Source of the DNA: an uncultured Phycisphaerales bacterium
GTDB taxonomy: Bacteria > Planctomycetota > B15-G4 > CAYZWU01
Length of the DNA: 64,000 bases
Assembly (NCBI GenBank): GCA_964542475.1
Contig: CAZIUL010000003.1
Span: 19,826-83,825 of the forward strand
Direction: 5' to 3'
Positions 1 through 42,689 of the stretch are shown here, in pieces. Within the stretch, counting starts at the first letter, position 1; each line of letters begins with the position of its first letter. The position numbers and the translations under genes are program-made. The notes under the pieces were generated by a model. The model made no database searches and was not told where the DNA came from. It saw only the letters and a program-made list of their open reading frames with translations.

Positions 1-15
1 AACCGAAAGCAAAAC

Positions 16-6339: not shown

Positions 6340-6395
6340 GCTTTCATGAAAGCCGGCAACAGCTCCCCGCTTTTGCGGCTTTTGAAAGGCTGTTC

Positions 6396-19885: not shown

Positions 19886-21321
19886 TCACAGAACAGAAAA
19901 GGTTCCTTGCGGTTGCAGGGCTTTCGCTCGCGGCGGTTGTGCTTGCCGTCGGGCTTTTCGTGACGCCGCTTGCGAGCCTGGGGGTTTTCGCGCTCGTGTT
20001 CATGACAGCCGCGGGCCTCATCACAGCCCTTGCCTTGGTCAGGCCGATCTGGGTGCTTTACGCCGCCGTGGCGCTCCTTCCGGTCTGGAGCTCCTTCGAA
20101 ATCGGCAAGATCAACTTCTCGCCGTTCGAGCTCATGGTCATGTTTCTCTTTTTTGTGTGCCTTTTGCGGTGGTTGACCAGCGGGCACATCCAGGCCGCTC
20201 TTTTTTCCATGCCCAATCCGTGGATATGGCTCGTTGTTGCGTCGGCGTTCGCCGGCGCCCTGGCAGGGGCTCCCGATACGATAGAAGCGATTAACATCAT
20301 GAGAAAATCGCTGCTGCTCCCACTCGCCTTTTACATCGTGCTGGTCGCGCTGGTAAAAAAACACGAAACCGTTATCCGCCTGCTATGGGTGTTCGTGCTC
20401 GCGAACTCGGTCATCGCCGCTTATTCCGTGTACGTCTACTACCAGCTTTCCAGGCAGTTCAGGGCCGGATATTCTCTTACCAGCTCGGTCTTCCTTGGGA
20501 TTTCATGCACATGCGGGATAATTATCTGCTATAAGCTGCGCGGTGATACGGGGAGGTGGAAACGCCGGATGCTGGAGCTGCTTCTGCTCACCCAGTTCAT
20601 GTGCCTGATACTCACGTTCACCAGGGTCGCCATAATCTGCCTGCTGGCAATGCCTGTTATCTACTGGCTGCTCTTCAAAACGAAACACAGGCGTGTGCTT
20701 GCCGTTTCCGCCTGCGTGGTTGTCTCTCTCCTTCTCTTCGGAATGTGCTTTTCCATGGACATGGATTTCGTATCAATCGTATACGGTTCCGGCTCCAGGG
20801 AGGCGGAAAGGGTTGTGAATCCGGCCCAGTACCAGGACGACCTTTTTCTCAGGTTCGAGAACTGGTCTCTTGCTTTCGATGTTTTTCTGGACAGCCCGCT
20901 TTTCGGCCATGGTTTTTATCCGTTTTACAAGCTGGCTGACACGTGGCGGACCACCCGCCTCAGCCATCCTCACTCCATCATCTTCAACCTGCTTGTATCG
21001 AGCGGGCTTGTCGGGGCCATCGCGTTTCTTCTCTTTTTTGGAGCAGCGCTGCGCATGATCTGGCCCGCGTGCTTCGAGCGCGCCAGGGAATCCTCCCTTC
21101 AGAGGATCCTTTTTCTTTGCCTCTGGTGCATGGTGCTGGATGGTTTGATGAACGGGATCTTCATCTGGGTTCCAATTGCGTCGCTCTTCTTTTTCTTTCT
21201 GGGGCTCTGCCTGTCAATGAGCGTCATCGTTGCGGGAAAGCCCTTTACAAAGCTCGTTGAGAATCGAGAAACTCATGAAACCGATACGGATAGTGACGGT
21301 TGCCCCTACCCCGCACCTTGA
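19883..21321 (+). CDS. wzy: Wzy-like O-antigen polymerase/ligase family membrane protein
   Basis: It has ~11-12 hydrophobic segments with a large loop near the C-terminus. The ATG overlaps the preceding stop (ATGA), which suggests translational coupling. Confidence 0.5.
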
Positions 21322-23617: not shown

Positions 23618-26600
23618 TCACATCTCCCCGACGGCGGTGAGAAAGAACGGATTTCCGCTTTCACAGGTGAAGTTTTTCATACCGTGTTTACGGGGTGTTG
23701 GGGTTACGAAACCGATCCTCATGTAGCTGGTCCGCGTGGGATCATTCGAAAGCTCTCTCGTTTCCACAACCACTTCTCCGAAGCACGGAAAATCCACGGG
23801 GTACGGCCTGTCCATGCTCTGTATCCGGTGGTCGTCCTGGAAAACAACGCGCCAGTTCTCGTCGCAGAAATGCACGATGGGGTGATAGTTTTCGAACATG
23901 CGGTCATTAAAAAGCCAGAAGTACTTTATCGACCAGGACGCGTCCTTGCCGGGCTTTGCGTTTTCCTCCCTCGAAAACGTCAGCCCCAGGAGCTTCACCT
24001 TTCCGCTGAAGCTGACGCTGCAGGGAATCTCCGGGGTGAGCATGTCCAGGCGCTTTTCAAACGGCATGCCTTCATCCCCGGGCCCACCGGCCTGCTCCGT
24101 ACCCATCCCCTGCTTTTCGAGACGAACAAGCCTTTTCAGCGATTCCAGGTGCATGGGCACGATGCTTACGGCCTTGCCGTAGGCATCCCATGCCTTTGCC
24201 ATCTCACCCTTCTTTTCGTATCCCCTCCCAAGATAATGCCAAAGCAGATGGCGCTGGCGCCAGGACGCTCCCATTTCCGCGTCACCCGACATGATCCCCT
24301 TCAATTTGCTCAGCCCCTCATCCACCCGGCCAGTAAGAACTAGGCCGGCACCGCGAACCAGCCCTGCGGCGAGAAGGTCCCTGCCATCCTTCAGGCGGAG
24401 CGAATCGAGCGTGTCCAGGATCCTTTCAAGGGTTTCGTTATCCAGGGAAGTGCTGTTGATGACCAGCCTGAACAACAGGTCGATTGTGCGGTTGCATGGA
24501 GGAGCGATATCCGCCAAGCCCGGAAGAGACGCGAGGTCGGCCGCTTCGATCAACAGCTCCTGGTTTTTGGGAAAATCGTTCAAGAGGTCGAGGCATATTT
24601 CCAACGATTCCTCGTGCCTGCCGGATTCCCTCAGCATCCTGGCCCTCGCGAGCGTTTTTGCCGCGCTTCCTTGCGCGTACTCGCTGTAGCTGGACACCTC
24701 GCGCGTGCGCTCGGCCCACTTCCCAAGGATAGCCAGGACACAGCTCCGTTTGCTTGACAGGTCGAGCAACACATCATCGCGGGCCTTTTCTTTCACACGT
24801 AAGCTTTGCCCTGCGAAAGCCGTCCCCTCGACATCACCGGCAACAATGCCCGGCATCCGAGCGACCAATGCGTCGGTGTTTCCGGCCCCGCCCCCTGATC
24901 CCTCAGGCGCCAGCAGCAGCTTTTTCGAAACATCCAGGCATGCAAGCACATCCTCCCAGTCCCCTGCTTCCCAGAGCTCCCGGATCAGCTTGTCGTAGGT
25001 AGGTATCGTCTTGGGCGTCACCTTGATCAGCGCTTCTCTGCCTCCCATCGCGGCAGGCACCAGAGCGTACACCTTCTCGGCATATTTCGAGTCGGAAAGC
25101 ATGGCGCGCCTGAAGCAGGAAACCGCAAAGCTCATCGCCTTGCCGCTGGGATCGCTCTGCCCCGAGGCAAAGCTCTCAGCGGTAAAAATCTTGCCTGCGT
25201 CGAAGAGCACGGCAGGCTTGCCGGGCGCAAGCACAATCGCGCTTTCAGCCTCTTTCATCGCCTCTTCGGTCGAACTCGACCCGTCGCCCGCTGCGCTGTT
25301 TGCCGCAACGAGCTGGGCCAGCACACTGGAGAGGTTGAGGTGATAACGCGCAATGTGGGGAGAAAGGGATATCGCTTCCCTCAAACACTCTTCAGCCTTT
25401 GTAAGCGCCGGCTTGCATTCGGCTCCCATGCGGGATTTAAGGCTTTCTGTCAGCGAGGCCACGACTTTTTCGAAACCGGCCGGGTCGCTCGTTTCGATGT
25501 CGTCACCAAGCAGGCCCCGGGTTGTTTTCACGGCCTTGTCCCGAAGGACGCTTTCAGCCGCCTTGACGCATGCGATCGAGCTGTAGAAACAGTATTCCGC
25601 GTTATGCGGGTCCAGCTCGATGGCCTTTTGCAGGCTCTCGCGCGGGCACGCATCCCCGCCATCGCCGGGCTCCAGAAAATGGTAGTCGCTGACCCTGCCC
25701 CTGAACTCCTCGCCGGCAAGAAAGCGGTTGAAATGGATATCCGCGAGGCCGGTGCCGGCGGCCCGGGCAGCGGGAAACCAGAACGCGGCCGCAGCGAGAA
25801 TAACCATTGCGCAGCCAAGAACCGGCGACCGGACCGGGATGTCGAAATACCTCGGCCTCTTCATTGTCCTGCCGTTCAAGGGAATGGTTGCCGACACACT
25901 CAAAAGCCCCAGGATCACCGTGAAGATGATCCCGTTGGATGTGATCTTGTATAGGTTGTAGTCGAAAAAGCTGTGAAGCAGCATCGAGCAGACGCCCATC
26001 ATGGAACCGATTGCCACCCAGCGGCAAAACCGATCCTGCCTGCGCGTGGTCCTTCTGAAAAGCAGGATCATTACCCAGGCAATTCCCGCGACCACGGCTG
26101 TTCCGCCGACTACGCCGAGCTCGCAAAAAACCTGAAGCCAGTCGTTGTGCAGGTAATCCGCGTACCTGTCGCCGAACCGTATGGACTGGAACCCCTCGAA
26201 CGCGCCCTCAAAAGTTCCAAGCCCCGTGCCTAGCAGGGGAAAGCTGCTTATCATGGTCAACGCCGATTGCCAGAGGTCGATCCTGTCCGCCATGGAGGAT
26301 GCCTGGCCCGAGGCTGCGTCTTCGATGCTGCTGATGACCATGCCTGCGCCAATGCCCGTGGCGATGCAGATTATCAGGGCAACGAACATCAAAAGCGCCA
26401 ACGTGTACTTTCTGAACCCGGAGGCCATGGAGAGCACAATCGCGAAGCCGGCCCAGGAGAGCACCGCGCAAACGATGCCCGCGCGGGAAAGCGAGAAAAA
26501 GACGGCAACCGTTACAAGCACCAGGCTGATGCCCAGAATGACCTGCCGGTGCGTTCCCGCGGCTGAAAACGCGTTCACGATCCTGGCCCTCATGGATGGG

Positions 26601-27355
26601 CTCCGGTTGGCTTTCGGGCTCGCCGCAATGAACAGGCCGAGCAGAAGAGGAACGACCATTCCGAGAAGGCCCGCAAAGTGGTTCTTGTTGTGAAAGGTGC
26701 CTGTAACCGCTGATAGATGGTATTGCCTCTCGTTCCAGAACACATTACGGCCGCCGGAAAACTGCTCCGCAAAACCGTAGAGCGCCTCGAACGTTCCAAC
26801 CGCGACGAGCGCAAGAATCAAGGCCACCACCTGGCCTTTGCTCCGGACCGTGTTCACCACAACAAAGAAGATCATGGCAAGCATGGCCCAGTGAGTCAGC
26901 GTGCCCAGGGACGCGTGCATGTCCACTGAAACCGTTCTTGCCTCGCCGCTTGCCGGATAGCCGGGGACCGTCATCTCGTAGAGCGCTCCGGTTGAAGGGG
27001 AGACCGCCTTCAAGAGGTCGGGCGCCATCGGCAAAAGCTGGATCCCGATCAACAGCAGCACGGCCGCCATGAGAAACCACATTGGAGTCCTGAACACCCT
27101 TATCCTTTTGGCGCGTACGCTTTTTATGAGCCAGAGCCCAACCATGGCCAGGGAAAGCAGAAAAGCGAGGCTCTTCGCCCAGGGGGCTGCCGATCCGAAA
27201 GGCATGGGGGACAGTACGATCAATGCGATGAGCAGGAACCCTATGACGAAATCGAAAAGGCCGAGTCGTTCGTGCTGTTGCATGCTGTGTCTTCCTGTTG
27301 ACTGTTTTGTTTTGTTTGTGATCCGGTTTTCTTTGCCTACCGGTCCCGCTGTCAA
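23618..27355 (-). CDS. O-antigen ligase-domain membrane protein fused to a large C-terminal TPR-repeat domain (1245 aa)
   Basis: The N-terminal ~500 aa are polytopic and Wzy_C-like. The C-terminal ~700 aa contain TPR-like helical repeats. The start ATG overlaps the cpsB stop (ATGA). Confidence 0.55.
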   Translation of the reverse strand: MTAGPVGKENRITNKTKQSTGRHSMQQHERLGLFDFVIGFLLIALIVLSPMPFGSAAPWAKSLAFLLSLAMVGLWLIKSVRAKRIRVFRTPMWFLMAAVLLLIGIQLLPMAPDLLKAVSPSTGALYEMTVPGYPASGEARTVSVDMHASLGTLTHWAMLAMIFFVVVNTVRSKGQVVALILALVAVGTFEALYGFAEQFSGGRNVFWNERQYHLSAVTGTFHNKNHFAGLLGMVVPLLLGLFIAASPKANRSPSMRARIVNAFSAAGTHRQVILGISLVLVTVAVFFSLSRAGIVCAVLSWAGFAIVLSMASGFRKYTLALLMFVALIICIATGIGAGMVISSIEDAASGQASSMADRIDLWQSALTMISSFPLLGTGLGTFEGAFEGFQSIRFGDRYADYLHNDWLQVFCELGVVGGTAVVAGIAWVMILLFRRTTRRQDRFCRWVAIGSMMGVCSMLLHSFFDYNLYKITSNGIIFTVILGLLSVSATIPLNGRTMKRPRYFDIPVRSPVLGCAMVILAAAAFWFPAARAAGTGLADIHFNRFLAGEEFRGRVSDYHFLEPGDGGDACPRESLQKAIELDPHNAEYCFYSSIACVKAAESVLRDKAVKTTRGLLGDDIETSDPAGFEKVVASLTESLKSRMGAECKPALTKAEECLREAISLSPHIARYHLNLSSVLAQLVAANSAAGDGSSSTEEAMKEAESAIVLAPGKPAVLFDAGKIFTAESFASGQSDPSGKAMSFAVSCFRRAMLSDSKYAEKVYALVPAAMGGREALIKVTPKTIPTYDKLIRELWEAGDWEDVLACLDVSKKLLLAPEGSGGGAGNTDALVARMPGIVAGDVEGTAFAGQSLRVKEKARDDVLLDLSSKRSCVLAILGKWAERTREVSSYSEYAQGSAAKTLARARMLRESGRHEESLEICLDLLNDFPKNQELLIEAADLASLPGLADIAPPCNRTIDLLFRLVINSTSLDNETLERILDTLDSLRLKDGRDLLAAGLVRGAGLVLTGRVDEGLSKLKGIMSGDAEMGASWRQRHLLWHYLGRGYEKKGEMAKAWDAYGKAVSIVPMHLESLKRLVRLEKQGMGTEQAGGPGDEGMPFEKRLDMLTPEIPCSVSFSGKVKLLGLTFSREENAKPGKDASWSIKYFWLFNDRMFENYHPIVHFCDENWRVVFQDDHRIQSMDRPYPVDFPCFGEVVVETRELSNDPTRTSYMRIGFVTPTPRKHGMKNFTCESGNPFFLTAVGEM

Positions 27356-28137
27356 AAGCCCGGGATCCCCAGCCTGCCCAAAAGGCCGCCTCTGCTTTTT
27401 TCCCGCGCCTCCGGCACTTCCATTGCTTCCCCCGCGAGGATTTTTGCGGGCCTGTTGATGAACACCTCTTCCGCCTCAGCCCGCCCCATAACCTTTTCGA
27501 CCGCATCGAACGCCGCGCTCAGGCCGGGGGGACGGCGATCAGCGGCATGCGCGTCACTTGCTACCAGATGCGCCATTCCCATTTCCATGAGCCGGTGTGC
27601 CGTCTTGTGTCGCCCGCGGCCGGACTCGCCGGCCAGGGAAGCTGCCGTGATCTGGATAAGCGTGCCCGAAGATACGATCTCCATCAGCCTTTCCGGGGCC
27701 GACTGGATCTCGCGGTTACGTTCCGGGTGCGTGACTATCGGAACCACGCCTTCAACCTGAAGGGAAAAGAGATGGTGGTCCAGGCCTTGCGGAAGTATGT
27801 CGTCGGGCAGCTCCAGAAGAAGGTACCGACCCGCATCACCAAGGGTCATCACGCTGCCCTCTTTCAAAAACCGCACCAGGTCGGCGTGAATGTGGATATC
27901 AGCCCCGGGTTTCACGTCGACACGAATCCCCTCCTCCTTGAGGGCGCCTTGCAGCCTCTTGACTCCATCGAGCACCTGGTCGCGGGTGACATGGAAGACG
28001 CCGTTTAACATGTGAGGAGTGGCCGTGATTGTTTTTGTTCCGTCCTCGGCAGCCATCGCGCACATCTCGACGGATTCATCCATGCTTTTCGGCCCGTCAT
28101 CGAGCCCCGGCAGAACGTGCATGTGCAGGTCAATCAC
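27352..28137 (-). CDS. cpsB: PHP-family protein-tyrosine phosphatase (CpsB/Wzb/YwqE-type)
   Basis: MIDLHMHVLPGLDDGP at the N-terminus is diagnostic for CpsB. The start overlaps the upstream wzc stop (ATGA). Confidence 0.75.
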   Translation of the reverse strand: MIDLHMHVLPGLDDGPKSMDESVEMCAMAAEDGTKTITATPHMLNGVFHVTRDQVLDGVKRLQGALKEEGIRVDVKPGADIHIHADLVRFLKEGSVMTLGDAGRYLLLELPDDILPQGLDHHLFSLQVEGVVPIVTHPERNREIQSAPERLMEIVSSGTLIQITAASLAGESGRGRHKTAHRLMEMGMAHLVASDAHAADRRPPGLSAAFDAVEKVMGRAEAEEVFINRPAKILAGEAMEVPEAREKSRGGLLGRLGIPGF

Positions 28138-30366
28138 GACACCTTCTCCATTTCACGTCCTGTTTCTTTTGAAACGCTCCCGCTCTTCGAGCGACCGTGT
28201 CTTGTCTTATTCTTTTTCCCGCCTGCTCCCGATTCCTCGTGGTAATTCTTGCCGTAATAGTAGTAACCGCCGTAGCCGTACTGGCCGCCTTTGGGCATGT
28301 CCACGCTGTTGAGGACCGCGCCAACCAGCCTGCAACGGGCGCTTGAAAGAACCTCTCCGGCGCGCCGCACCGTATCCTTCTGTGTCGAGTGCGCCCTGAC
28401 CACCAGCAACGAGCCCTCCATGTACCCGCAAAGCACGGCAGCGTCGGTGGTGGTGACAACAGGAGGCGTGTCAAAGACAACGTATTCGTATCGGGAGCTC
28501 ATCTCGGCCAGCAGGCCGGGCACATTCTCGTTTCCGAGAAGTTCGGCCGGATTGGGCGGGACGGGACCGCTCGGGAGTATGTGAAGGTTCTCCACACCCG
28601 ACGAAACAGCAGCCGTTTCCAGCGTCACGCCTTCCTTGTTTACGAGCAAAGAGCTCAATCCCTGCATCGAGGACGATTCGAACACCCTGGAAAGGCGGGG
28701 TCTTCGCATGTCCGCATCCACAAGCAGCACCTTTTTCCCCGCCTTGGCCAGCGCTATGGCCGTGTTAAGACTAACGATCGTCTTTCCCTCGGACGGCACC
28801 GCGCTGGTTACGAGGAATGTCTTGAGGCCTTTGCCCCCGTTGCTGAAACTCAGCGCTGTTCGGATCGAACGAAACGCCTCTGCGAGCGCAGAATGTGGAT
28901 TCTCGACGGCCTCAAACTCCGCCTGTTTTTTACCGTTGCCGCCGTTCCTGCGGCCGTCCCCTCCGACAGGCGGAACGAATCCCATGACAGGCACGCCCAA
29001 AAACTGCTCCACGTCGCTTTTCGTCTTGATGGTCGTGTCCAGGTACTCCACGAAAAAGCAGAGCCCAATCCCAAGGAGCAGGCCCACCATCAGGCTCAGG
29101 GCAATGCTCAAAAGCTTGCGAGGCTTCGCCGGCCTGATCGGGATGCGGGGTTTGGCAATGATGAAAATGTTGTCTTCCTTGTCACCGGCGGCCATCGCTG
29201 TCTCGATCTCCTGGATCCTTTGGGTCACGACGCGGTAGGCCCTGTTCAGGTCCTCGTAGCTCTGGCTTATCAAGGTGTACTCGACCGACTTCTCGTTGAG
29301 CGCCATCACCTTCTTCTGCTGCTCGTCAAGCACCTTTTTCAGCTCGCCCTCCTGTTTCGCGGCGCGCGTGTATTCCGCTTCGGCCGATGCCAGGATCTGG
29401 CTGATTTCGCTCTTCATCTTCTCGGCCACGCTTGCGAGCTTGGCCTCTGCGGAAAGCGCTTCCGGGTGGTTGGGACCAAAGCGGTTTTCGAGATCGCTTA
29501 CTTCCTGTTCCGCATGGGTGAACTCCAGCTTGAGATCGCGAATGGCCTCGCTAGAAATGATCTCCGGCATCCGCTCCAGCGGCAGGTTCTCTTTCAAGGC
29601 GTTTGCGATGTCGTTGTACCGCGCCTGGGCCAGTATCCGCTTGTTCTCGGCGTCTGTAAGGTTCTGGTTGATCGCCTTCAGCCGTTCGACAACGATGTCC
29701 TGCGCCTTTTCGAACGAAACCATCTCGTTATGCGCCATGAAATGCTGCATGGCCTTGGCCTTCTCTTCCACCTGGGGTTTCAGGTCGGCCGCTTTCGCCC
29801 TGAGAGCTATCAGCCCCTCCTCGGACACGCCCAGCCTGCGCTTTCTGCAGTTGGACAGAAACTCATCGACATGATATTCGATTACGCGGGCGGCAAGCTC
29901 GGGATCCTTCCACTCGAAGGAGACTCCCACGAGACGCGTCCTCTTGATCGGGCTGACCAGAAAACAGCTCATGAACTTTACGATCGGGTCTCGAAGCTCG
30001 CGAAACTCCTTCATCTCGCCGAAACCGAAGTGCCTGAAGCTCTTTTCGATCAGGGGCCGCGACAGGAGAAGCTTGTACTGCGTTTCAAGAAAGGTCTGCC
30101 TGTTGAAATCGCCGTCACTCATGGCGGGATCGTAGACATCCTTGAACTCGGTTACGTTCGGACTCGATGGCTCGATCAGAAGAGTCGAACCCGCCCGATA
30201 GGTTGGAGTCTGGATAAAGACATATGCGGTGACGGACATCACCACTACAAAAAAGACGCTGACAAGTATCCACTTTCGCACATAGAGTATGCGAAGGTAG
30301 TCCTTGAGGTGCGGCTCGTTCGAGCTGTGCTTATCCGGATTCGGATCCACGCTCCTGGTCATGTTG
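28134..30366 (-). CDS. wzc: Polysaccharide co-polymerase / BY-tyrosine autokinase (Wzc/EpsB family)
   Basis: Features: an N-terminal Wzz-like domain with a TM segment and a long coiled coil, Walker A (SAVPSEGKT), Walker B (VVFDTPP), and a C-terminal Tyr cluster (QYGYGGYYYYGKNY). I chose the start at MTRSV (30366). Confidence 0.8.
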
Positions 30367-30438
30367 TCTCTCTTCACTGCTGCAGTTCCTTCTTGCAAGT
30401 ATAACCGTCGGGCGGTTGGCTTTGCCCGTTGCATGCCG

Positions 30439-31559
30439 CTAGTTGGCAAGATCCACGTTGTACCCGACGTGGAAGAGCCGCTTGAAAAAATCCAACGTCT
30501 CGATAAAAATCTTCTTCGAGGTTGTCTGGCGCACATCTATGATGTCGTTTGACTTGAGAAAAATGTTCGGTTCTTGGCCGCTCGAGATGGCCACCAAATC
30601 CAGGGGGATCACAACCTCTTCATCCGCAAGCCGCCTTTTCAGCACGCAGCTCCTGGGAGACGCTTCGTATTCCATCAACCCCTCTGCCAAAGCAACCCCG
30701 TCAAGAACGGTGGTCGGTCTTTTCAGCGCAAAACCGCCCGGCTTGCGCACAAAGCCCATAACGTAGAAAAGCGGGGCTTCGGGCACAAAGACCACGTCGT
30801 CATCTCTCAGCACCACGTTGAGCTCCATGTCGCCGCGCTCCAGCAGCTCCACGAGGTCGACGACAATAACTTCCTTTTTTGTATCACTGACAAGCGGGCC
30901 GGCAAGCCCGGCTCCCGCTCCTGTATCGAGAGCAGGGTCTGCCGCGCCTTCATCCGCGGCCTTTTTGTCCGCGTGCCTGGGGCGGAGAACATAAAGCACA
31001 TACCCGGCGCGTTCGTCGAGACCGCCCGCAAGAGCGATCGCGTCCAGCAGGGTTGTGACGTTCTGCCTGAGGTTGAACCGGCCGGGCGCCTCGAGGGCTC
31101 CTATGACCGCGATCGTTTTGCTGCGAAACTCCTTCACAACAACGCTAACACGCGGTGTCTTGATGAGCCCGCCGGCTATCAAGCGCGACACGATGTCCTG
31201 CTCGATTTCCTCAACGGTTTTGTTCTTTGCTTCGATCGTGCCCAGCAGGGGCAAGGTAATGATGCCGCTTTCCGAGATCCTCGGATCAATGGTCATGGGC
31301 TCGTCGCGCACCATCCACTCGAAGATGCTCACGGAGAGCACATCATCGGTGCCAACCCTGTAGTCTTCTTCCTGTTCCCGGATCCCGTCGAGAGTCTCCT
31401 TCGCCAGCCTCCTGCTCAACGCGTCTGTCGGCGAGATGCGCCTTGTTTTAACAGCCGTGTTAACAATGTTGACTTCATCCGAAGCGCAGCCGGCATGTAC
31501 AAGGACAACCAGTGCGATAAAGATGTGTGATGCCCGGAGTGTTCTTCGCTGAAGCATTT
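30439..31559 (-). CDS. wza: Outer-membrane polysaccharide export protein (Wza-like, Poly_export + SLBB)
   Basis: There is a signal peptide ending VHAGCAS (possible lipoprotein), and the size and position match Wza upstream of wzc. I chose the start at MLQRR (~31559). Confidence 0.65.
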
Positions 31560-31746
31560 CTCTCCTCTCTCTATACTTTCTACTCTCTAATCTCCACCCT
31601 CTCTGCACCGGGCCTGGTAAACGATTGAAATTCCTATCGGCAGGCAAAAGTATGCTTGCTTTAAAAAACAAATCTTTGTGTGGAAAAACAACACCGGCAG
31701 CAAGGCTGGCGGCGGGATGGTGGATCGGAATTGTTTGGGTGTGGGG

Positions 31747-32244
31747 CTATGGACTAACGTGGCTGCTGCCGCCGGATGATCCGTGGGAAGCGAGGGCGAC
31801 GACAGGCACGCCGACCACAATCACCGCTCCTCCTATTACGATGAGCGTCCAATGCAAAGGAGAAAGTCCTGCGCTTTCGGTGGGAAGCACGAACATCAGC
31901 ATGGACAAAGTGGCTTCTTTCGAAACCATGAGTGTTACAGCGGTTTCTCCGTCGATCTCCAGGATGTAGTTTCCCTCTGGAACACCACTTATCCGGTATA
32001 TTCCATACTTGTCGGAAACAGCGGACCCAACGACCTTTCCGTTGGGATCGATGATCCTGACCTGCTTTCCGGCCAGCTTCCTGCCGGTGGAATCGGAAAC
32101 TATCCCGCTAAGATCGCCGGGTTTGACCGTTTGCTGGCCAAGCTCCCCTCCCTTCGAAAACGCGTCGCCCGTCAAAAACAACATCAGCGGGAGCGCGCAG
32201 AGACACGCTGTGTATGAAACTCGCATTCTGAATGTGCTTTTCAT
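31747..32244 (-). CDS. Small secreted protein with a carboxypeptidase-regulatory-like (Ig-like) domain and a C-terminal TM plus Gly/Ser tail
   Basis: It has a signal peptide and the IIDPNGKVVGSAVSDKYGIYRISGVPEGNYILE motif. The C-terminus reads SPLHWTLIVIGGAVIVVGVPVVALASHGSSGGS. It is a paralogue of 32297-32794. Confidence 0.45.
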   Translation of the reverse strand: MKSTFRMRVSYTACLCALPLMLFLTGDAFSKGGELGQQTVKPGDLSGIVSDSTGRKLAGKQVRIIDPNGKVVGSAVSDKYGIYRISGVPEGNYILEIDGETAVTLMVSKEATLSMLMFVLPTESAGLSPLHWTLIVIGGAVIVVGVPVVALASHGSSGGSSHVSP

Positions 32245-32296
32245 TATAATCGTCAAGCCAGTCCGCATGTTTTCATGAATGAATCCGTGCGCTGCA

Positions 32297-32794
32297 TCAT
32301 GGACTCAGTGGAGGAACACCGCCGTGACCGCCGGAAGAAGAGCCTCCTCCAGCCGCCAAAGGGACACCAACCGCAACAGCGGTACCCCCTACGCCAATCA
32401 GCGTCCACTGAAGAGGGGAAAACGAGTACCACGATTCTTTTGCGGGTATCACTATTTTCAGCGATGAAACGGTTGCTTCCCTGGTAACCTGCAGCTTTGT
32501 AACCTCCTTATCCCCGAGCTTGAGAACATAATCTCCCTCCGGGAGGTTATTGATCTGGTACATGCCGTATTTGTTGGAAACCGAGGAAGCAACAACCTTT
32601 CCCTCGCTGTTTACAACAAGGATTTTTTTTCCGGCAATCTTTTCACCCGCGGAATCTGAAACGAAACCGCAAAAACGGCCGGGTTTGACCTTCTGGACAT
32701 CCAGCACGCCCTCTGCTGCAAAGGCGTTTTCAGCTGAACCGCAAAGGAACAAAAAACCAACCGCCGCTAGTAAAAAAACAATCCTCTTCTTCAT
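32297..32794 (-). CDS. Paralogous small secreted CarbopepD-reg-like protein with the same C-terminal motif
   Basis: MKKRIVFLLAAVGFLFLCGSAENAFA is a signal peptide. LVVNSEGKVVASSVSNKYGMYQINNLPEGDYVL is present. The C-terminus reads SPLQWTLIGVGGTAVAVGVPLAAGGGSSSGG. Confidence 0.45.
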   Translation of the reverse strand: MKKRIVFLLAAVGFLFLCGSAENAFAAEGVLDVQKVKPGRFCGFVSDSAGEKIAGKKILVVNSEGKVVASSVSNKYGMYQINNLPEGDYVLKLGDKEVTKLQVTREATVSSLKIVIPAKESWYSFSPLQWTLIGVGGTAVAVGVPLAAGGGSSSGGHGGVPPLSP

Positions 32795-32974: not shown

Positions 32975-34945
32975 GTGGATACGTTAAAAAAAACAGAGTC
33001 GCGGACAGCGGCCGCCTTTATTCCCGTTTCAGAGGATGATATGACAGAGGAGATGAACGAAAAAGACACGTTGTTCCGTCTCGACGCAAAACCGCTCGAG
33101 CCTTCCGGCCTGTTGAGGGAGATCGAGAAGGAGTCGTTTATCTCCTTCCTCGGCAACAGGATCTACGGGAATACGGACCGCGGGTTTCTGGAGGCCCAGA
33201 GGAAGCGGTACATCCAAACGGTCGAGCTCCATGTAAAACGCTACGGCGAGCGACCCACGTTCCTTATCCGGGCGCCCGGCCGCCTCAACCTGTTCATGGA
33301 GTACCTGGATATGTGCGGGGGTGATCACATGTCCACAACCATAGACGGCGACATTCCGGCCGCGGTGAGTCCGGCGATGAACAGCTCCGGCAAAAGCCGG
33401 GGCCGTGTCAGGATCTGCAACACCAACCATCTTTTCGGGGAAGCTGAGTTTTCCATCGCCGAGGAGCTGGCAAGGTTCAAGAGCAGGTCCTGGTCAAAGG
33501 AAGCTGCGAACGGAATACCGGACAACTGGGAAGGGCGAAGCCTCATCAGCCCTCACCACGGAAGGCCGCGCGGGGATTGGCTGAACTATGTCCTGGCCCC
33601 CTACCTGCGTGCATCGTTCGAATGGCCGGAAATCGGCTTTTCAGGCTGCGACATGACGTTCGGCCCGTCCAGCATCCCCATCCGCGCGGGAACGAGCTCG
33701 TCCTCGGCGGTTGTCGTGCTTTCCCTGCTGTCGCTTATCCTCGCGGAGCAGGACAGGCTCCCGCGGCTCGGTGTCAGGAAGCTCTGCCGTTTTCTCGGCG
33801 AGGCGGAGTGGTACGTGGGAACGCGCGGCGGTGCAAACGACCAGACCACCATACTGCGCAACCGCACCAACTCCATACTTTACAACCTTCACCACCTCGA
33901 TCTGATCGATTCGCGCCCCGTTCCATGGCTCGACGGCATGGCTGTTCTGCTGTGCAACACCCTGTGGGAGGCGGACAAGGCGCTTGGGGCCAGGGATGTG
34001 TTCAACCTGCGCAAAGGCTGGATGGATCTTGCGCGCGATCTCCTGCTCGGGCTGACCGAGGCGGCAGCGGGCCATCTGGCGGCAGGCAGAAGCCGCGGAC
34101 CCGGTTGGCTCAGGGAATGTGTGGCCGCGGCCCTGCCGGGAATCGAGCCGCCCGCGTCCAGCTGTCTCGAATCACGCACCGGCCTGTGGAGCGTTTTGTC
34201 TGAGCGTTTCTCACACCTGGGCTCGCTCGACAACGAGCTGCTGGGCCTGGACACCGAAGCCATCGACGAGTTCATCGATCTGCTGCCGGAACGCATAACC
34301 GCTGAGCAGGCGGGACGCGCTCTTTCCAAGGACCTCGCAGCTATGGAGCGCGATTACACACTGCCGCTGCCGGAGGACGGCGGATACAAGCCCAGGCAGG
34401 CGGCGCGGTTCTTCCATATCGAAAACCGGATCGGCCGCAATCTCGAATCGGTGCTGTGTGAAGCGCACGCACGGGCGGGCAAGGGGGAGCTCGCTCCCGA
34501 ATCCGAAGAGTACGACGCGTACAGGGTAAAGGTGGCGGATCACTTGAACAGCCTTCAGGTCGTGCTTCGGGACCTTTTCGAGGTGAGCAACAGCCAGATC
34601 GAGCTGCTCCTGAGCATTGCCGGGAACGGTCCCGGTTTCATGGCGGGCAAGCTCACCGGAGCGGGAAGCGGCGGGTGCGTCTGCATACTTGTCCACGAGG
34701 AAGACGCGGCACCAATGCTCGACTGGCTGGATGCCGAGTACTTCGGAAAAGAGGAGAATTTTTCGGTTTACCGCAAAACCCTGTCCGAGCTTGCCGCTTC
34801 GCCGGACGAGGCGTACAGGCGTAAAGCCGCTGAACTGGTTGACAACCTCGAATCCGCGCTCTCGTCGCCCGAGGAGCACCGAAGGAAGGTGAGCTTCTCG
34901 AACGGAGCCGGGGTTATTTCTCCGGAGGAGTTCGGCGGGATGTAA
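32975..34945 (+). CDS. GHMP-family sugar kinase (galactokinase-like), unusually long (656 aa)
   Basis: RAPGRLNLFMEYLD matches the galactokinase signature; PIRAGTSSSSAVVVLSL is the GHMP ATP motif; GAGSGGCVCILV is the GHMP C-terminal motif. An alternative start at 33041 has an aggaggatgatATG-type RBS. Confidence 0.6.
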   Translation: MDTLKKTESRTAAAFIPVSEDDMTEEMNEKDTLFRLDAKPLEPSGLLREIEKESFISFLGNRIYGNTDRGFLEAQRKRYIQTVELHVKRYGERPTFLIRAPGRLNLFMEYLDMCGGDHMSTTIDGDIPAAVSPAMNSSGKSRGRVRICNTNHLFGEAEFSIAEELARFKSRSWSKEAANGIPDNWEGRSLISPHHGRPRGDWLNYVLAPYLRASFEWPEIGFSGCDMTFGPSSIPIRAGTSSSSAVVVLSLLSLILAEQDRLPRLGVRKLCRFLGEAEWYVGTRGGANDQTTILRNRTNSILYNLHHLDLIDSRPVPWLDGMAVLLCNTLWEADKALGARDVFNLRKGWMDLARDLLLGLTEAAAGHLAAGRSRGPGWLRECVAAALPGIEPPASSCLESRTGLWSVLSERFSHLGSLDNELLGLDTEAIDEFIDLLPERITAEQAGRALSKDLAAMERDYTLPLPEDGGYKPRQAARFFHIENRIGRNLESVLCEAHARAGKGELAPESEEYDAYRVKVADHLNSLQVVLRDLFEVSNSQIELLLSIAGNGPGFMAGKLTGAGSGGCVCILVHEEDAAPMLDWLDAEYFGKEENFSVYRKTLSELAASPDEAYRRKAAELVDNLESALSSPEEHRRKVSFSNGAGVISPEEFGGM

Positions 34946-37090: not shown

Positions 37091-39571
37091 TCACTCGCCC
37101 TTCAATGGGTCAAAGATCGATCCCTTGTGTTTGTCGCTGAACAGCGCCAGGGGCGTGATGTTTAAAGAGACGCTCTTGTTGTTGTCCCCCCTGTCGATTT
37201 CACACTCGATCTCGAACAGCCACTGGTGAGCCCTTCTCCTGAAGATAAGCGACCTGTCCACCCAGGTTCTTTTAACGATATCGTACTGAACGCCGAGCTC
37301 CACTTCCCACTTGGGGGTGAGAAGGTACCGGAAAGCGGTTCCAAAATAGGAATGCCTGCTCCTGATCCATCTGTGGCGGAGAATCAAGGTGTAGTCGTCA
37401 TCAGGATTGATGTGAAGCCTTGAGTTCAGGGCGTCGAGCCCCTTGCGTGTCAGGTCGAACTCGCCTTCCTCGTTCAGGGTGAGCTTTTTTAGAAGCCGCC
37501 CGCTGAAAAGCGGCCTGAACCAGAGATCGAATCCGAGGTTTCCCATCCTGTGATCGTCCTCGCCGAGTCGCCTGTCCGGAAAGAACGGCAGCCTGAAGAG
37601 GCCGTCGTACATCGTATGCACCATGCCCGCCTCTTCAGGATCCCTTGTCTGGATTCTCTGCCTCACCTCGAGCGCAAGCGCGTCGCCGCGAACCGGAGTC
37701 TCCATCTCGTCGAACGGAATCAGCTTCCCCGCTTCCTTGTTTATCGCAAAGGTATCCCTGTAGACGAGCGCGGGCTCCACAATGTTGCGGATCCCGTCGA
37801 TGTTGAGAAGCCCGCTTTTGAAATCCGAAAGGGCATGGAAAAGAAGGCCGGACCTCACGCCGAACGATTCTGCAAGCCTGGCAGCCGGCTGCGAATCGTC
37901 AAGGGTTCTCTCGAAATAGGACATCCTGTTCTCATAAAAAGGGGTGATCTTCATGATCCCGGCCTTGAAAGGCGCCTCGACGAGCCCGTTGTAGTCTCCC
38001 CGGGTGAGCCTGTCGCCATCTTGCGCAAGCTCATCGTCCGGCCGGTATCGCACCTGGGAAAACTCGGTGCCGTGGCTGTAGAAAACACCGGGCATGCTGT
38101 GAACGATTGGATTGATCCCCCCGACCGGCACCGGAAGCGCGGAAAGATCCCATCGAGCCTGAGGGATGTACTCGTTCTGCGAGTCGAAATCGTTCAGCCT
38201 GAACCGTCCCAGCAACGAATAAGACTGATGGTCCTGCGCCTTGTGAAAATAGGCGTAGGTCTCCTGCTCCTTATCGGTCTTGAACTCGCTCTCGTAGTAT
38301 TCGTCCAGAAAATGGCGGTCCGTGATGTAGCTCAGCTCCAGGTCAAGGAGGTGGCCGTCCCCGAGCTCGACCCTGTTCTGGGTTCTGATCCTTCCGCGCT
38401 TGTTCTCCTCGATCGGAGCGCCGCCCCGGTCGCTGTCCGCGGAATCGTTTATGAAATACCCCTTCAGGTACCCCTTGTAGAGACCCTCGGATTCGTACTC
38501 GAGCGCAGGACCCAGGCCGATGCCCCTTTTGTCCAGCAGGCCCAGCTCCAGCTCGATGTCGCCGCGGAAACCGTTGTCGATTCCCAAGGCGGAATGCGCT
38601 TTCTTGCCGAGCTTGTCGAAGTTTTCTCCAAGGGTGATGATCGCATGGGGCCCGTACCTGGAAGATGTGCCCACTTTCAGGCGCTTGACGGGAAAGTACC
38701 AGTGCCGCCCGACCTGAAAAGATGTATCGAACAGTGGAATCTCCGCGCCTCTGATGGCAATCGATGTCCCGTTCAGCGACATTATTCCTTCCTTCGGATC
38801 GCCCTTGAGCTCGGAATGCTCTATCCTCAGCTCGTAGTGCGGGATCGAATGAACGCATGTGCTGAACGTTGCGTTTTCCATGGTATGCAGCCGGCCGCAG
38901 ACCTGTTTCAGCGCTTCAGCCTTGAAATGAAGAGGGTGCTTGCGGTCCAGGATATCCCTCTCGCCGAAGATTTGACCCGACAGAAGCACGCCCCGCTTCT
39001 CCGCCAGGTTCGTGTAAACCTGGTCACAGAGAAAAGTCGATCCCTCGTAAAGGATTTTCACATTCCCTTCCGCGTACAGCTCCATCGGTTCCCGCGCCCA
39101 GGGAGAATCGCTTTTCTCCTCGGAAGGCTTCTCCCCCTTTGCAGGCGCCTTCTCCTGATCTTCGGAAGGCGCGCCCGGACCGGCGCTTTCCGGCCACCCC
39201 CCGGGATCGCGGGTAAGGTAGCCGTACTCGTACTTGTCGCTCTTTAAGATGTTGAACAGCCTGTTCGACCCCGTGTAGTCGTACCACAGGACCGCGCTGT
39301 CAGCCCAGACCTGGGTATCGCTCATGGAGATGTGAACCGAGCCGTGCAGGATCACGATCCTGTAATCCCCGTCAACGAAAGACTGTACGTTCTTCCCATC
39401 CAAAGAAAGGATTTCGCCTTCGGGCGTGGGTGTCCGGATTACAACATCGGTGTCTTTTTCCTCTTCGTCGGCACAAAAAATGAACGGGGATTGCATGCAG
39501 AAAAACATGGCTGCCCACGCGGCAACAAGGATACGGGCCCTTCGCAGCCCTGCTTTTTCAGTAGCTGACAA
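37091..39571 (-). CDS. lptD: LPS-assembly outer-membrane protein LptD (OstA family)
   Basis: 826 aa. It has a signal peptide and an OstA-like N-domain motif (LYAEGNVKILYEGSTFLCDQVYTNLAEKRGVLL). The C-terminal half is beta-rich, and kdsD lies in the same neighbourhood. Confidence 0.55.
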   Translation of the reverse strand: MSATEKAGLRRARILVAAWAAMFFCMQSPFIFCADEEEKDTDVVIRTPTPEGEILSLDGKNVQSFVDGDYRIVILHGSVHISMSDTQVWADSAVLWYDYTGSNRLFNILKSDKYEYGYLTRDPGGWPESAGPGAPSEDQEKAPAKGEKPSEEKSDSPWAREPMELYAEGNVKILYEGSTFLCDQVYTNLAEKRGVLLSGQIFGERDILDRKHPLHFKAEALKQVCGRLHTMENATFSTCVHSIPHYELRIEHSELKGDPKEGIMSLNGTSIAIRGAEIPLFDTSFQVGRHWYFPVKRLKVGTSSRYGPHAIITLGENFDKLGKKAHSALGIDNGFRGDIELELGLLDKRGIGLGPALEYESEGLYKGYLKGYFINDSADSDRGGAPIEENKRGRIRTQNRVELGDGHLLDLELSYITDRHFLDEYYESEFKTDKEQETYAYFHKAQDHQSYSLLGRFRLNDFDSQNEYIPQARWDLSALPVPVGGINPIVHSMPGVFYSHGTEFSQVRYRPDDELAQDGDRLTRGDYNGLVEAPFKAGIMKITPFYENRMSYFERTLDDSQPAARLAESFGVRSGLLFHALSDFKSGLLNIDGIRNIVEPALVYRDTFAINKEAGKLIPFDEMETPVRGDALALEVRQRIQTRDPEEAGMVHTMYDGLFRLPFFPDRRLGEDDHRMGNLGFDLWFRPLFSGRLLKKLTLNEEGEFDLTRKGLDALNSRLHINPDDDYTLILRHRWIRSRHSYFGTAFRYLLTPKWEVELGVQYDIVKRTWVDRSLIFRRRAHQWLFEIECEIDRGDNNKSVSLNITPLALFSDKHKGSIFDPLKGE

Positions 39572-42500
39572 TCGCGATCTCCTCCATCACCGGGCGCACA
39601 ATAACCGTTTTTCCCCTGATGAACGTGCTCCCATCGATCACGATATTCACCGGCTCTCCCAGGCCGTCGGTTTGAATCTCGTCCTTCAGGAAATCCCAGC
39701 TCAACCGGTTGCAATCGATCGAGTAGCTCTTGCTCTTCATCGCGATGTTCAGCAGAACGTTGTCCATGGCCTCGATCCGCTTGATCATGTTTCCGTCCTC
39801 TTCCGGAACAGGCTCGCCGCCGTTTTTTATCATGGCCCTGTAAGATTCATAATCCATGGCGGAAGGCTTTGAAAGAAGAGGGCTCTGCAGAAAATAGACC
39901 AGGAGCAGATCGCAATCCAGTGTACGCTTTCCTTCCTGCGCCCCGCTGGTGTGGACCAGGGAAACCGGGCCCTTGAACTCGAGCACATCGTTGCGCAGCC
40001 GGATCTCATCGACGCAATCGATGCTGATACGGCTCCATGTGCTGCTGCCCTGGTCGTACTGGTTCAGGACAACCGTCCCGCCCCGATCGATAAAAGCAGT
40101 GGAATCCCCAAGGTTCATGTCCACTCTTGTGGATGTGACGGAATCCAGGATGGTGGGATCCAGGGCTGTTGGAATCGACACTTGTGCGGGGCTTTCCGCT
40201 GTTCCGACCAGGGACAGCACCTCGCTTTCGCTGCCGTAGTTAAAGTCCGTGCATGTGGAGCGCGGACCTTTTTCGCCGCTCCGGACAGACGAGCTCCCCT
40301 TGCCGCTGACATAGATGTGCTCCGCGCCTTCCGGGCGCTCGATCTCTATCGTGTCGGCGGATGCATACACCGTTTCCAGGCCGCCCTCACCCATCAAGGA
40401 CTGCCCGCTTTCGCTGTTGTCGCCGCCGTCTTTCTTCCGCTCGAACATTGCGGCTGGAATGACCGCGTCAGCTTTCCGGCGCGCGATCAGCCGAACATCA
40501 TCGCCTGTATAAACATCGATATCTCCGGCATGAATAGTACACGGGTCCGGCAAGCCGGGATCAATGAACGAAATCGAGGCGGAACAGTCGTCTGCCTCGG
40601 TGTGAAACTCCATGGATCCGGAGTCGCGGTTGCCAAGAGAAAGAAAGTCGCCTTCCGATGAAAAGCCCAGCTCCGGACAATCGAGATTTCCGTCCCCCCT
40701 GACCTCGAGGGAGGAAAGCGCCCCGTCAATGACCTGGAGGCTGAAAGCCTTGTTGCCTGTGATGTCGAGCACTCTTATCCCGCCCCTGAGCATCCGGATA
40801 TGGAAATCGCCGTTTTTGATGGATAACGTCTGCTTGGGTCCGGCCGGATCTTCTATGCCAAGAAGCCTGAACTCCCCGCAGCCGTTGATCTCGACCCTGC
40901 CGCCCGAGGCCTGCCCGGCGCCGGACATGGGTTCGGCTTCCCCGGTTTTTTCGGCTTCCTCCGTTTCCTCCGCTGCCGTGTCGAACAGGCTGAATGAGCG
41001 GATACGAGGAAGTTCTTCGACTTCTGATGTGCACACAAATGTGTCGTTTGCGGAGATCTCCGTAACATCCGGGTACAGCTCGATGTTGATGACAGCGGAA
41101 CGAATAGTCATTTGCTCGCCTTCGAGCCGGCTTTCTTCGGGATCCGACAGCACAAGGCTGCTGATGTAGCCGTCCGCCGCCTCGGTGTAGTTATAGGAAA
41201 AGCTGCTGCATGCCAGATCGAACTCCTGAATGTGGCCGGTAACATTTCCGTTGGCCTTGAACTCTTTCACCAGCAAGGCGGTGCCGTCCCCGTTGCTTTT
41301 ACCCGTGAAGGATCCTCCTTCTTTTTTTTCGTCCTTTGTCACCAGGAAGGAAACGGTATCGGCTTTCAAGAGGTGCGGGCCGGGATTCTCTTTTTCGTCC
41401 ATCAAAACGCCGCCGTCCATATTCACGATGAAGCGGTCTTTCGACGCATCCTCGGACTCGAACGATTCGATCTCGATACGTTCTCCGCAATCCAGCTTCA
41501 TCAGAGAAAGCGATTCATCCCTGGACAGCGAAGAGAAAAGCGGCATGGAAACGTTGTCGATCTCAGGGGTTCCGGTCAGGATGAAAACATCCTTATCTTT
41601 TTCCCTGCGAAAAGTCAGCTCATCGCAGTAAACCGTGTAACCCTCCCCATTCAGGGTGGTTCTGTTGGCCTCCGATGCTCCGTGCATCTCCTTTATCTCA
41701 ATCTCCCCCTGAGAAGATTCGATGAACTCGGCCACAAGAACGTCACAGGAAAAGCTCTGCTTCTCGCGGGTTACCACGACATCGTTTTTTATCTCCAAAC
41801 GGCTCGGGGATTTTTCAACACCATCATCATCCCGGCCTGATGAACCGTTGTTCGATGAAGCGGATCCGAGCTTGCCTGGCATCTTGAGAAGAAGCGGTCC
41901 TGCCGCGGAGATGTAAATTGGTGAAGAGGATTCCCGCCCCTTCGCCTCCTTCTCCTTCTTCTTCTCGGGAGCAGCATCTTCCCGAAAACCGGAAAGGTCG
42001 GAAAGTTCGAGGTTCTCGGCTTCGATTCGTATGTTTTTCTGCAGCACGAACTCCGACGATTCCAGGTCCAGCTCCATGCCGTCCCCGGCAACAACGATGC
42101 CTTCCCTGGAGATTGTAATCCGCTCCGTTGAATCGAAACGGCTTTTGCGGCAGATGAGGTCGTTGGTCCTCACCGAAAAGGACTGCTTTCCTGTTCGGGG
42201 ATCAAATGCGTTTATTTTTATGTTGTCCTTGAGCACGAAAAAGTCCGGCTTGAACTCCGTGCGCATATCCAACCCTTCAACCGGAGCAGGAGAATAGAAC
42301 TCCGCCCGGTCGGAGGTGCCCTTGGCGATGATGCGCTCCTCCAGCGGCTTCTCGTGCCTGGATTTGTCATAAAAAACGAAGCTGATCTCCTCGCCTTCGA
42401 ACTTCTTGGCCCCGGCCGGCGTGAGCTTGCCTATGGACAGGTGTCCGGTTTGAACCCTGATCTCGTTCCCCTGCTTGTCCTCTATGAGCTCGTAGCGTGG

Positions 42501-42689
42501 AAACTCACCCCCCAGGATGTACGGTTTTTTTTCCAGTGACGGGGGCAGATCAACAGGCGAGTCCGGGATGACCGGTAATATGAACTCCTTGCTCGGGGGA
42601 AGCTCCTTTTCCCGCGTTATCATCTGTATCACGGTGATAATGACTACCGCCAGCGCGGAAAGAACGATTATATAGATGAAGCGTTTCAT
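39558..42689 (-). CDS. Large membrane-anchored periplasmic protein (1043 aa), possibly with LptC/LptA (OstA_N)-like repeats
   Basis: It has a single N-terminal TM (IYIIVLSALAVVIITVI). Segments such as NDLICRKSRFDSTERITISREGIVVAGDGMELDLESSEFVLQKNIRI resemble the Lpt beta-jellyroll motif. It overlaps the lptD start by 14 bp. Confidence 0.4.
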   Translation of the reverse strand: MKRFIYIIVLSALAVVIITVIQMITREKELPPSKEFILPVIPDSPVDLPPSLEKKPYILGGEFPRYELIEDKQGNEIRVQTGHLSIGKLTPAGAKKFEGEEISFVFYDKSRHEKPLEERIIAKGTSDRAEFYSPAPVEGLDMRTEFKPDFFVLKDNIKINAFDPRTGKQSFSVRTNDLICRKSRFDSTERITISREGIVVAGDGMELDLESSEFVLQKNIRIEAENLELSDLSGFREDAAPEKKKEKEAKGRESSSPIYISAAGPLLLKMPGKLGSASSNNGSSGRDDDGVEKSPSRLEIKNDVVVTREKQSFSCDVLVAEFIESSQGEIEIKEMHGASEANRTTLNGEGYTVYCDELTFRREKDKDVFILTGTPEIDNVSMPLFSSLSRDESLSLMKLDCGERIEIESFESEDASKDRFIVNMDGGVLMDEKENPGPHLLKADTVSFLVTKDEKKEGGSFTGKSNGDGTALLVKEFKANGNVTGHIQEFDLACSSFSYNYTEAADGYISSLVLSDPEESRLEGEQMTIRSAVINIELYPDVTEISANDTFVCTSEVEELPRIRSFSLFDTAAEETEEAEKTGEAEPMSGAGQASGGRVEINGCGEFRLLGIEDPAGPKQTLSIKNGDFHIRMLRGGIRVLDITGNKAFSLQVIDGALSSLEVRGDGNLDCPELGFSSEGDFLSLGNRDSGSMEFHTEADDCSASISFIDPGLPDPCTIHAGDIDVYTGDDVRLIARRKADAVIPAAMFERKKDGGDNSESGQSLMGEGGLETVYASADTIEIERPEGAEHIYVSGKGSSSVRSGEKGPRSTCTDFNYGSESEVLSLVGTAESPAQVSIPTALDPTILDSVTSTRVDMNLGDSTAFIDRGGTVVLNQYDQGSSTWSRISIDCVDEIRLRNDVLEFKGPVSLVHTSGAQEGKRTLDCDLLLVYFLQSPLLSKPSAMDYESYRAMIKNGGEPVPEEDGNMIKRIEAMDNVLLNIAMKSKSYSIDCNRLSWDFLKDEIQTDGLGEPVNIVIDGSTFIRGKTVIVRPVMEEIAIVSY

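Follow-up and report, generated by a model that had tools for sequence, protein, structure and literature searches.

Analysis of a 64,000-nucleotide stretch of DNA from an uncultured Phycisphaerales bacterium (contig CAZIUL010000003.1, positions 19,826 to 83,825; hereafter the window) identified a family of small secreted proteins with a conserved C-terminal tail module, represented in the window by two adjacent genes, A and B, that head an operon for polysaccharide export. The family is real, conserved and previously uncurated, and within a narrow group of uncultured bacteria both it and its tail module are closely tied to wza-wzc operons. The reading we prefer, with a probability of about 40%, is that A and B are bitopic inner-membrane accessory subunits of the Wzx/Wzy-Wza/Wzc pathway, anchored by a Gly-rich helix and carrying a cytoplasmic tail whose Ser-Pro end docks a partner.

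Gene A, the first of the pair (32297..32794, minus strand), is an open reading frame (ORF) whose translation begins MKKRIVF and runs for 165 aa plus the stop, and the public gene call for it (P0152) is identical, at 165 aa. For gene B, the second (31747..32268, minus strand), the longest ORF gives 173 aa and public gene callers give 169 aa, while the ATG at 32244 (MKSTF), likely the true start, gives 165 aa. The two products are 47% identical over 135 aa (E=5e-42). A first-pass annotation of the window had described tandem secreted paralogues of about 165 aa, and both ORFs are indeed real, on the minus strand and related at this level. Read by eye, A opens with a predicted Sec signal peptide at residues 1–26 (MKKRIVFLLAAVGFLFLCGSAENAFA, followed by A; 32717..32794, minus strand) and B with a Sec-type signal peptide (MKSTFRMRVSYTACLCALPLMLFLTGDAFS, followed by K). 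Each has Lys/Arg in its n-region and a hydrophobic core, ending AFA/A in the first protein and AFS/K in the second, and the alignment places comparable signal-peptide-like N-termini in all relatives.

The most distinctive part of both proteins is the tail. In A, a PLQW motif leads into a glycine-rich hydrophobic stretch (PLQWTLIGVGGTAVAVGVPLAAGGG; 32342..32416, minus strand), delimited by conservation and hydrophobicity, and this is followed by a polar Gly/Ser/His tail (SSSGGHGGVPPLSP; 32300..32341, minus strand). B is built alike, with a PLHW motif and hydrophobic stretch (PLHWTLIVIGGAVIVVGVPVVALAS; 31786..31860, minus strand), recognized from hydrophobicity and the periodicity of conservation, and a polar tail (HGSSGGSSHVSP; 31750..31785, minus strand). 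Alignment and codons place Ser-Pro-COOH at the end of both, the true protein ends being ...SSHVSP* and ...HGGVPPLSP*. The first-pass annotation had reported near-identical tails; the resemblance is far beyond chance, but the tails it quoted were too short and omitted the Ser-Pro ends.

Across the family the plan is a signal peptide, a beta-sandwich marked by QK(V/I)KPG...KYGxY...PEG(D/E)Y, a short linker, and the tail. The first part of the tail reads (T/S)PLxW-TLI-x-V-GG-x-AV-x-VG-(V/I)(P/V)-xIx, usually followed by H-N; the second is a segment of 8–17 residues enriched in Ser, Gly, Asp and His, in many cases including another His 3–5 residues before the end, and is followed by [V/I/L]-Ser-Pro-stop. 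All family members finish in [V/I/L]-Ser-Pro-COOH, and this Ser-Pro end is the family's most conserved feature. Overall identity between members is 35–56%, and W, I, one G, one S and the final S-P are invariant in the tails of 16 members, with T, L and the preceding P-L frequent. The conservation of the end is a constraint on the protein: in the 12 genes for which DNA was available the terminal Ser codon is AGY every time, while the Pro codon (CCA/CCG/CCC) and the stop (TGA/TAG/TAA) vary among the same genes. The Ser has thus never been lost since the common ancestor, and a nucleotide-level cause of the conserved end is ruled out by the free variation of the two codons that follow it. A tail-only profile scored 56–75 bits on every member and matched nothing else in 222 kb of related DNA. 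The possibility that the motif is confined to these two paralogues, named at the outset as a refutation, falls away, since the tail recurs in orthologues from several metagenomic lineages.

The family comprises about 20 distinct sequences of about 160 aa, a lower bound, all of one architecture and all from metagenomes. A word-index homology search with B, a method of low sensitivity, found only B's own cluster. In an exhaustive HMMER search with the two mature paralogues, the best 150 of 6060 matches were mostly multi-repeat CarboxypepD_reg proteins of 1,000–7,800 aa and included at least 10 small relatives (124–166 aa) that align over their full length and through the tail. Four further members (P0153-P0156) came from a profile search, and contig look-ups gave adjacent partners. 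Scans with patterns drawn solely from the first-gene subfamily detected no member in the 185,579 GTDB species representatives and a single true member (locus L014) in JGI metagenome contigs; L012, L013 and L015, also recovered by these scans, proved to be domain-level relatives. A contig scan with poorly conserved N-terminal patterns found no member. The sole sample traced to its source, that of L018, came from a South China Sea cold seep (PMC9357000).

Most relatives occur in tandem pairs, as in the window, L011/L014, L007-L010, a JGI 3300042731 contig and the contig of P0095; in L018 the 3' end of an upstream family copy is visible (...VIIHNAQDDSSRTLISP*). In a neighbor-joining tree the first-gene and second-gene sequences mostly separate, with exceptions, which suggests that the duplication is probably old and has been kept as a pair.

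The folded part of the proteins belongs to a widespread superfamily. Pfam CarboxypepD_reg (PF13620) matches B with 38.8 bits and A with 33.5 bits, both above the gathering score of 32.3, in agreement with the CarbopepD-reg-type core proposed at first pass. AlphaFold2 predicts a confident eight-strand beta-sandwich of about 85 residues in both, with predicted local distance difference test (pLDDT) values of 88–96 in A (residues about 35–117; 32444..32692, minus strand) and 85–95 in B (31888..32130, minus strand). By Foldseek the closest structures for the B domain are CnaB2 and pilin CnaB domains, with a top probability of 1.0, and at the sequence level the nearest solved relatives are SdrD B repeats and macroglobulin MG domains. 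The core of A and B is thus a member of the CarboxypepD_reg/CnaB/transthyretin-like domains, known from PDB 8bdw (CnaB2), BcpA, the SdrD B repeats and PA1324. In known CarboxypepD_reg proteins the domain is usually repeated within large adhesins or enzymes, whereas A and B have a single copy joined to a specific tail. A weak match to the C-terminal domain of the type IX secretion system (Por_Secre_tail; 13.7–18.2 bits against cutoffs of 23 and 27) covers the beta-sandwich (residues about 65–115) and not the tail, and a type IX reading was dropped. Small tandem pairs of CarboxypepD_reg proteins exist elsewhere without the tail: in L013, from a Chitinophagaceae metagenome-assembled genome, two such proteins of 151 and 169 aa with signal peptides are encoded side by side (9503-10471), and their C-termini are hydrophilic, rich in Lys and Asp, and free of a hydrophobic tail.

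The genomic position of the family is conserved. In the window the order on the coding strand is A, B, wza, wzc, cpsB and a gene combining Wzy_C with tetratricopeptide repeats (TPR), which puts the pair at the 5' head of the operon, not at its tail as first annotated. The same linkage recurs across lineages: in five of them (the window, L011/L014, L016/L017, L018 and L020) family genes lie directly upstream of wza or wzc orthologues. The downstream wza orthologues of L016 and L018 are 60–64% identical to that of the window, and L011 has a Poly_export gene. In L020 a single family gene has an AIM24 gene on one side and a wzc orthologue (55%) on the other, and a galactokinase/GHMP-kinase-like gene diverges upstream of it as in the window. 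That gene is unusually long in the window (656 aa; 32975-34945, plus strand; Pfam/NCBIfam scan) and diverges from the pair; its L020 orthologue (1-564, minus strand) is 49% identical and holds the same position, so it is part of the conserved neighborhood. In L007-L010 the pair sits between glycosyltransferases, the adjoining GT2 of L007 sharing 59% identity with the window cluster's GT2, and one member, in L021, has a different gene context. AIM24-family genes stand directly upstream of the family gene or pair in L020 (628-1416) and in L007 (8913-9720), where the translation is broken by a run of unknown residues (X), and not in the window.

Downstream of the pair the operon encodes export components. 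The wza product (30439..31560, minus strand) is an OPX lipoprotein with Poly_export and SLBB domains by Pfam; NCBIfam EpsE/Wza-type matches to it are all below cutoff, and it aligns to domains D1-D3 of E. coli Wza and ends in a 28-residue amphipathic C-terminus. We considered the idea that the pair might provide an outer-membrane-spanning segment that this Wza lacks. Its lipoprotein-type N-terminus (...VHAGC/ASDE) implies a diderm host. Then come wzc, a PCP-2a tyrosine autokinase (28134..30377, minus strand; TIGR01007, 191.5 bits against a cutoff of 108); a cpsB-type PHP tyrosine phosphatase gene (27352..28137, minus strand; PF19567, E=8.9e-55); and, as the last operon gene, a fusion of a polytopic Wzy_C domain, O-antigen-ligase-like, with about 700 aa of TPR repeats (23618..27355, minus strand; Pfam Wzy_C and TPR). 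The fusion has 1245 aa, with the TPR domain at residues about 531–1245, and about 12 hydrophobic segments, and it matches no NCBIfam model. A second Wzy_C protein by Pfam, Wzy-like and of 498 aa, is encoded at 19825-21321 on the plus strand, and the rest of the cluster is a standard Wzx/Wzy-dependent locus, with Wzx, Wzy, GT4s, a GT2, a methyltransferase and an APH-type kinase.

Between the pair and wza lies a spacer of 165–264 nt, and comparison across loci revealed in it a conserved promoter-like element, CTGCCGATAGGA (31632..31643, minus strand), about 80 nt upstream of wza, which has its only exact match in the window here. Its general form is a T-rich run followed by [G/A/T]CCGATA[G/A], found 55–135 nt upstream of wza in several lineages: in L011 (1387), in L016 (889) and, as a variant, in L018. 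It also stands upstream of the family genes themselves in L007 (10572), L020 (1540) and L021 (1938). The wza copies are preceded by an AAAGATT block about 30 nt before (in the window at about 31676-31690, minus strand). The element resembles a sigma-28-type -10 box. It suggests a promoter dedicated to wza and a regulator common to wza and the pair.

The first-pass annotation had offered a lineage-specific sorting tag as one explanation of the tail, and we compared A and B with the published attributes of tripartite sorting signals (10.1101/2023.06.07.544157). Like LPXTG/sortase, PEP-CTERM/exosortase, GlyGly-CTERM/rhombosortase and MYXO-CTERM/myxosortase signals, the tail sits at the extreme C-terminus and places a conserved short motif ahead of a hydrophobic segment, whose strength as a transmembrane helix is ambiguous, in proteins with an N-terminal signal peptide (by eye). 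The tripartite signals then end in a basic cluster of two to five residues, mostly Arg, with Lys; A and B instead have a Ser/Gly/Asp/His-rich stretch finishing in [VIL]SP, with the Ser-Pro-COOH invariant. Tripartite signals are also shared by multiple unrelated carriers, and every known carrier of the present tail is homologous over its full length, with only A and B carrying it within the window. A 46-column tail profile run against a collection of 5.8 billion proteins returned one 51-aa fragment and missed all known members, so it is uninformative about other carriers; the case illustrates that a short-profile search by word index can miss true positives.

Profile scans bear out the earlier exclusion of PEP-CTERM, LPXTG and GlyGly-CTERM as identities for the tail. 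None of these models matched eight isolated tails in NCBIfam at E<=10, and neither full-length proteins nor isolated tails reached the cutoff of any curated CTERM family in NCBIfam or Pfam, the sole CTERM-type matches being GG_III-CTERM (7.9 bits, cutoff 22) and the MXAN_6652 family (MXYO-CTERM-anchored; 13.6 bits, cutoff 200). A co-distributed sorting protease, proposed as a check, did not appear: no sortase, exosortase, rhomboid or CPBP protein turned up in the window, where ORFs of 200 aa or more were scanned, or in the gene calls for related loci (7–20 kb each; precomputed annotations of L001 and L007-L010). What survives of the tag proposal is a conserved, lineage-restricted module that matches no curated C-terminal sorting family, and the general sorting-tag reading is weakened, not refuted.

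The specific form of that reading is that the tail is a new cleavable signal, to be severed close to PLxW or to the helix-breaking GG/VP by a dedicated membrane protease or transpeptidase, which would move the beta-sandwich to lipid, polysaccharide or the surface. Helix-destabilizing Gly-Gly and Pro within a hydrophobic stretch are typical of intramembrane-protease substrates. The genes adjoin an exopolysaccharide (EPS) cluster, as PEP-CTERM genes do, and Wza, Wzc and Wzy of the window match XrtA-system families weakly, below cutoff. The segment after the stretch is nevertheless acidic or neutral, and invariance of the last two residues would be odd for a discarded remnant. Together with the single carrier architecture and the results of the enzyme and model searches, these points lead us to consider a cleavable signal unlikely. 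With one carrier architecture and no processing enzyme nearby, the tail looks more like a permanent anchor than a tag that is cut off. As for the companion proposal of a matrix-anchoring module for EPS-associated proteins, an anchoring role is reasonable, and the tail is kept in polysaccharide loci.

From these observations we infer a topology, a permanent anchor, partners and a role for the pair. A and B would be exported by a cleavable Sec signal peptide, fold a single transthyretin/CnaB-like beta-sandwich in the periplasm, and attach to the inner membrane via the C-terminal module. The module would comprise an interfacial (T/S)PLxW, a Gly/Val/Ala-rich helix of 20–22 residues, and a cytoplasmic Ser/Gly/Asp/His-rich tail of 12–20 residues. 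The most likely topology, though not an established one, is thus that of a type I inner-membrane protein whose tail lies in the cytoplasm. The hydrophobic stretch is 20–22 residues long, with the invariant Trp at its N-terminal boundary, and its 19-residue Kyte-Doolittle mean exceeds the criterion of 1.6 in all 16 members (1.65–2.79; 1.65 in A and 2.79 in B). Conserved positions 1, 4, 7/8, 11 and 13/14 share one helical face, and the power spectrum of conservation peaks at 100–125 degrees and is near zero at 160–180 degrees (alpha index 2.06, beta index 0.07). Through the face W-I-G(G)-V-G the helix could pack on the other paralogue or on the membrane helices of either Wzc or Wzy.

Several observations weigh against this topology and the role built on it. 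In a permutation test the helical periodicity falls short of significance (p=0.14). Crude Hessa sums for the stretch run from -1.15 to +4.0, with 10 of the 16 members above +2 (A +4.0, B -0.3), and are marginal against the -3 to +1 of Wzc, Wzy and Wzx membrane helices in the same window. Net charge after the stretch (K+R minus D+E) is zero or negative in 14 of 16 members; stop-transfer is not assured, because positive charges are missing there. AlphaFold2 gives the tail a pLDDT below 50 in both proteins, drawing a hairpin in the B model and a coil in the A model. On the side of the possible partners, the positive-inside rule applied to the C-terminal loops of the Wzy_C-TPR protein gives conflicting answers as to the membrane side of its TPR domain, and the partner of the Ser-Pro end is itself a guess.

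If the stretch failed to stop transfer, the whole tail would be periplasmic, and the penultimate Ser could be an acceptor for a co-encoded Wzy_C ligase or O-oligosaccharyltransferase (OTase), making the pair an anchor or carrier for polysaccharide. All known O-linking OTases carry Wzy_C, and TfpO and TfpM act on acceptors at a Ser/Thr that is either C-terminal or penultimate (PMC9829042), a precedent matched here by a penultimate Ser that is invariant in all members and under purifying selection, in a Ser-rich tail. The cluster also encodes the two Wzy_C proteins described above, one of them in the pair's own operon, and most members have Hessa sums above +2, which speaks against their stretch integrating efficiently into the membrane. 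TfpO/TfpM acceptors are, however, pilins with an N-terminal hydrophobic segment, whereas A and B are CnaB-like and have their segment at the C-terminus, so that the Ser may be cytoplasmic; the stretch of B, as hydrophobic as true membrane helices, would place its tail there. Co-occurrence with Wzy_C was checked in the window's lineage only, and the 19 kb of L007 contain no Wzy_C-TPR homologue. On balance we regard glycan acceptance as quite unlikely.

The low-confidence hairpin bears on a further possibility, that A and B are abundant matrix proteins, released or outer-membrane-associated and co-regulated with EPS, whose Gly/Val-rich stretch drives self-assembly into beta-hairpin or amyloid-like oligomers or forms a segment inserted in the outer membrane. 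Genes for small secreted paralogues that stand in tandem before an export operon, with the 165–264-nt spacer and its promoter-like element in between, have a layout typical of highly expressed structural genes, and the stretch is beta-branched and Gly-rich. Even so, the hairpin falls below a pLDDT of 50 and is absent from the model of the paralogue, conservation has no beta periodicity, and the stretch lacks the polar/apolar alternation of a barrel strand. An apolar run of 20 residues is normally retained by SecYEG. This explanation seems to us very unlikely. We made no use of the B hairpin itself, as it is of low confidence and not reproduced for A.

With A and B as bitopic subunits, the pair would be an accessory part of the assembly and export machine. 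The beta-sandwich may bind the nascent polymer or periplasmic parts of Wzc or Wza, and the free Ser-Pro carboxy-terminus may be recognized by a cytoplasmic partner for docking or regulation. The kinase domain of Wzc is one candidate; another is the TPR domain of the Wzy_C-TPR protein encoded in the same operon, and such domains are classic binders of C-terminal peptides. A precedent for such action is RmpD of Klebsiella, which binds Wzc and determines the chain length of the capsule (PMC10294653); it is likewise a small, non-canonical accessory protein of a Wzx/Wzy-Wza/Wzc capsule pathway. RmpD differs in having no periplasmic beta-sandwich, in being borne on plasmids or integrative and conjugative elements, and in not being encoded before wza. 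Wzc binding has been demonstrated for RmpD and would be predicted for A and B; the likeness is functional, and no sequence relationship was seen, though none was tested for.

A more far-reaching version of these ideas is that PLxW, the Gly-rich stretch, the Ser-rich segment and [VIL]-Ser-Pro-COOH form a new C-terminal recognition module for the polysaccharide machine, either as a sorting or processing signal without the Arg cluster or with its Ser ligated to polymer by a Wzy_C enzyme. We hold this to be unlikely.

Elsewhere in the window, four large proteins are encoded on the minus strand, at 37091-39571 (826 aa), 39558-42689 (1043 aa), 45615-48203 (862 aa) and 11642-13486 (614 aa). Each belongs to no Pfam family and shows just one hydrophobic segment, at the N-terminus, their sole match being a weak LptC-like NCBIfam one in the 1043-aa protein, and the first two genes overlap by 14 bases in operon-like fashion. 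A tetrapyrrole cluster (5656-8868, plus strand) encodes a precorrin-2 dehydrogenase-like NAD_binding_7 protein, porphobilinogen deaminase and a fused uroporphyrinogen-III methyltransferase/synthase (TP_methylase and HEM4). Beside a GT4 some 29 kb away from the pair lie genes for a Hanks-type Ser/Thr protein kinase (1614-3110, plus strand, 498 aa) and an AAA_16 ATPase (3954-5174, plus strand); we mention them only since the tails of A and B are Ser-rich with a Ser-Pro end, and nothing points to a connection. The 64-kb window gave no match to a tRNA, an rRNA or any Rfam family.

The reach of the finding is limited by the rarity of the family, known from about 20 sequences and from uncultured organisms only. 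Wza-Wzc machines are textbook systems whose parts list is thought nearly complete, and a conserved pair encoded with them would add an accessory component, as RmpD does in Klebsiella. The tail also tests the limits of the rules for sorting signals: motif, hydrophobic segment and position are all present, and the Arg cluster is replaced by a Ser-rich stretch and a Ser-Pro end. Should that end be a site of glycan attachment or docking, protein anchoring would be linked to polysaccharide assembly; and if a Wzy_C enzyme ligates polymer to the Ser, this would, if true, be a protein-anchored exopolysaccharide in a diderm bacterium.

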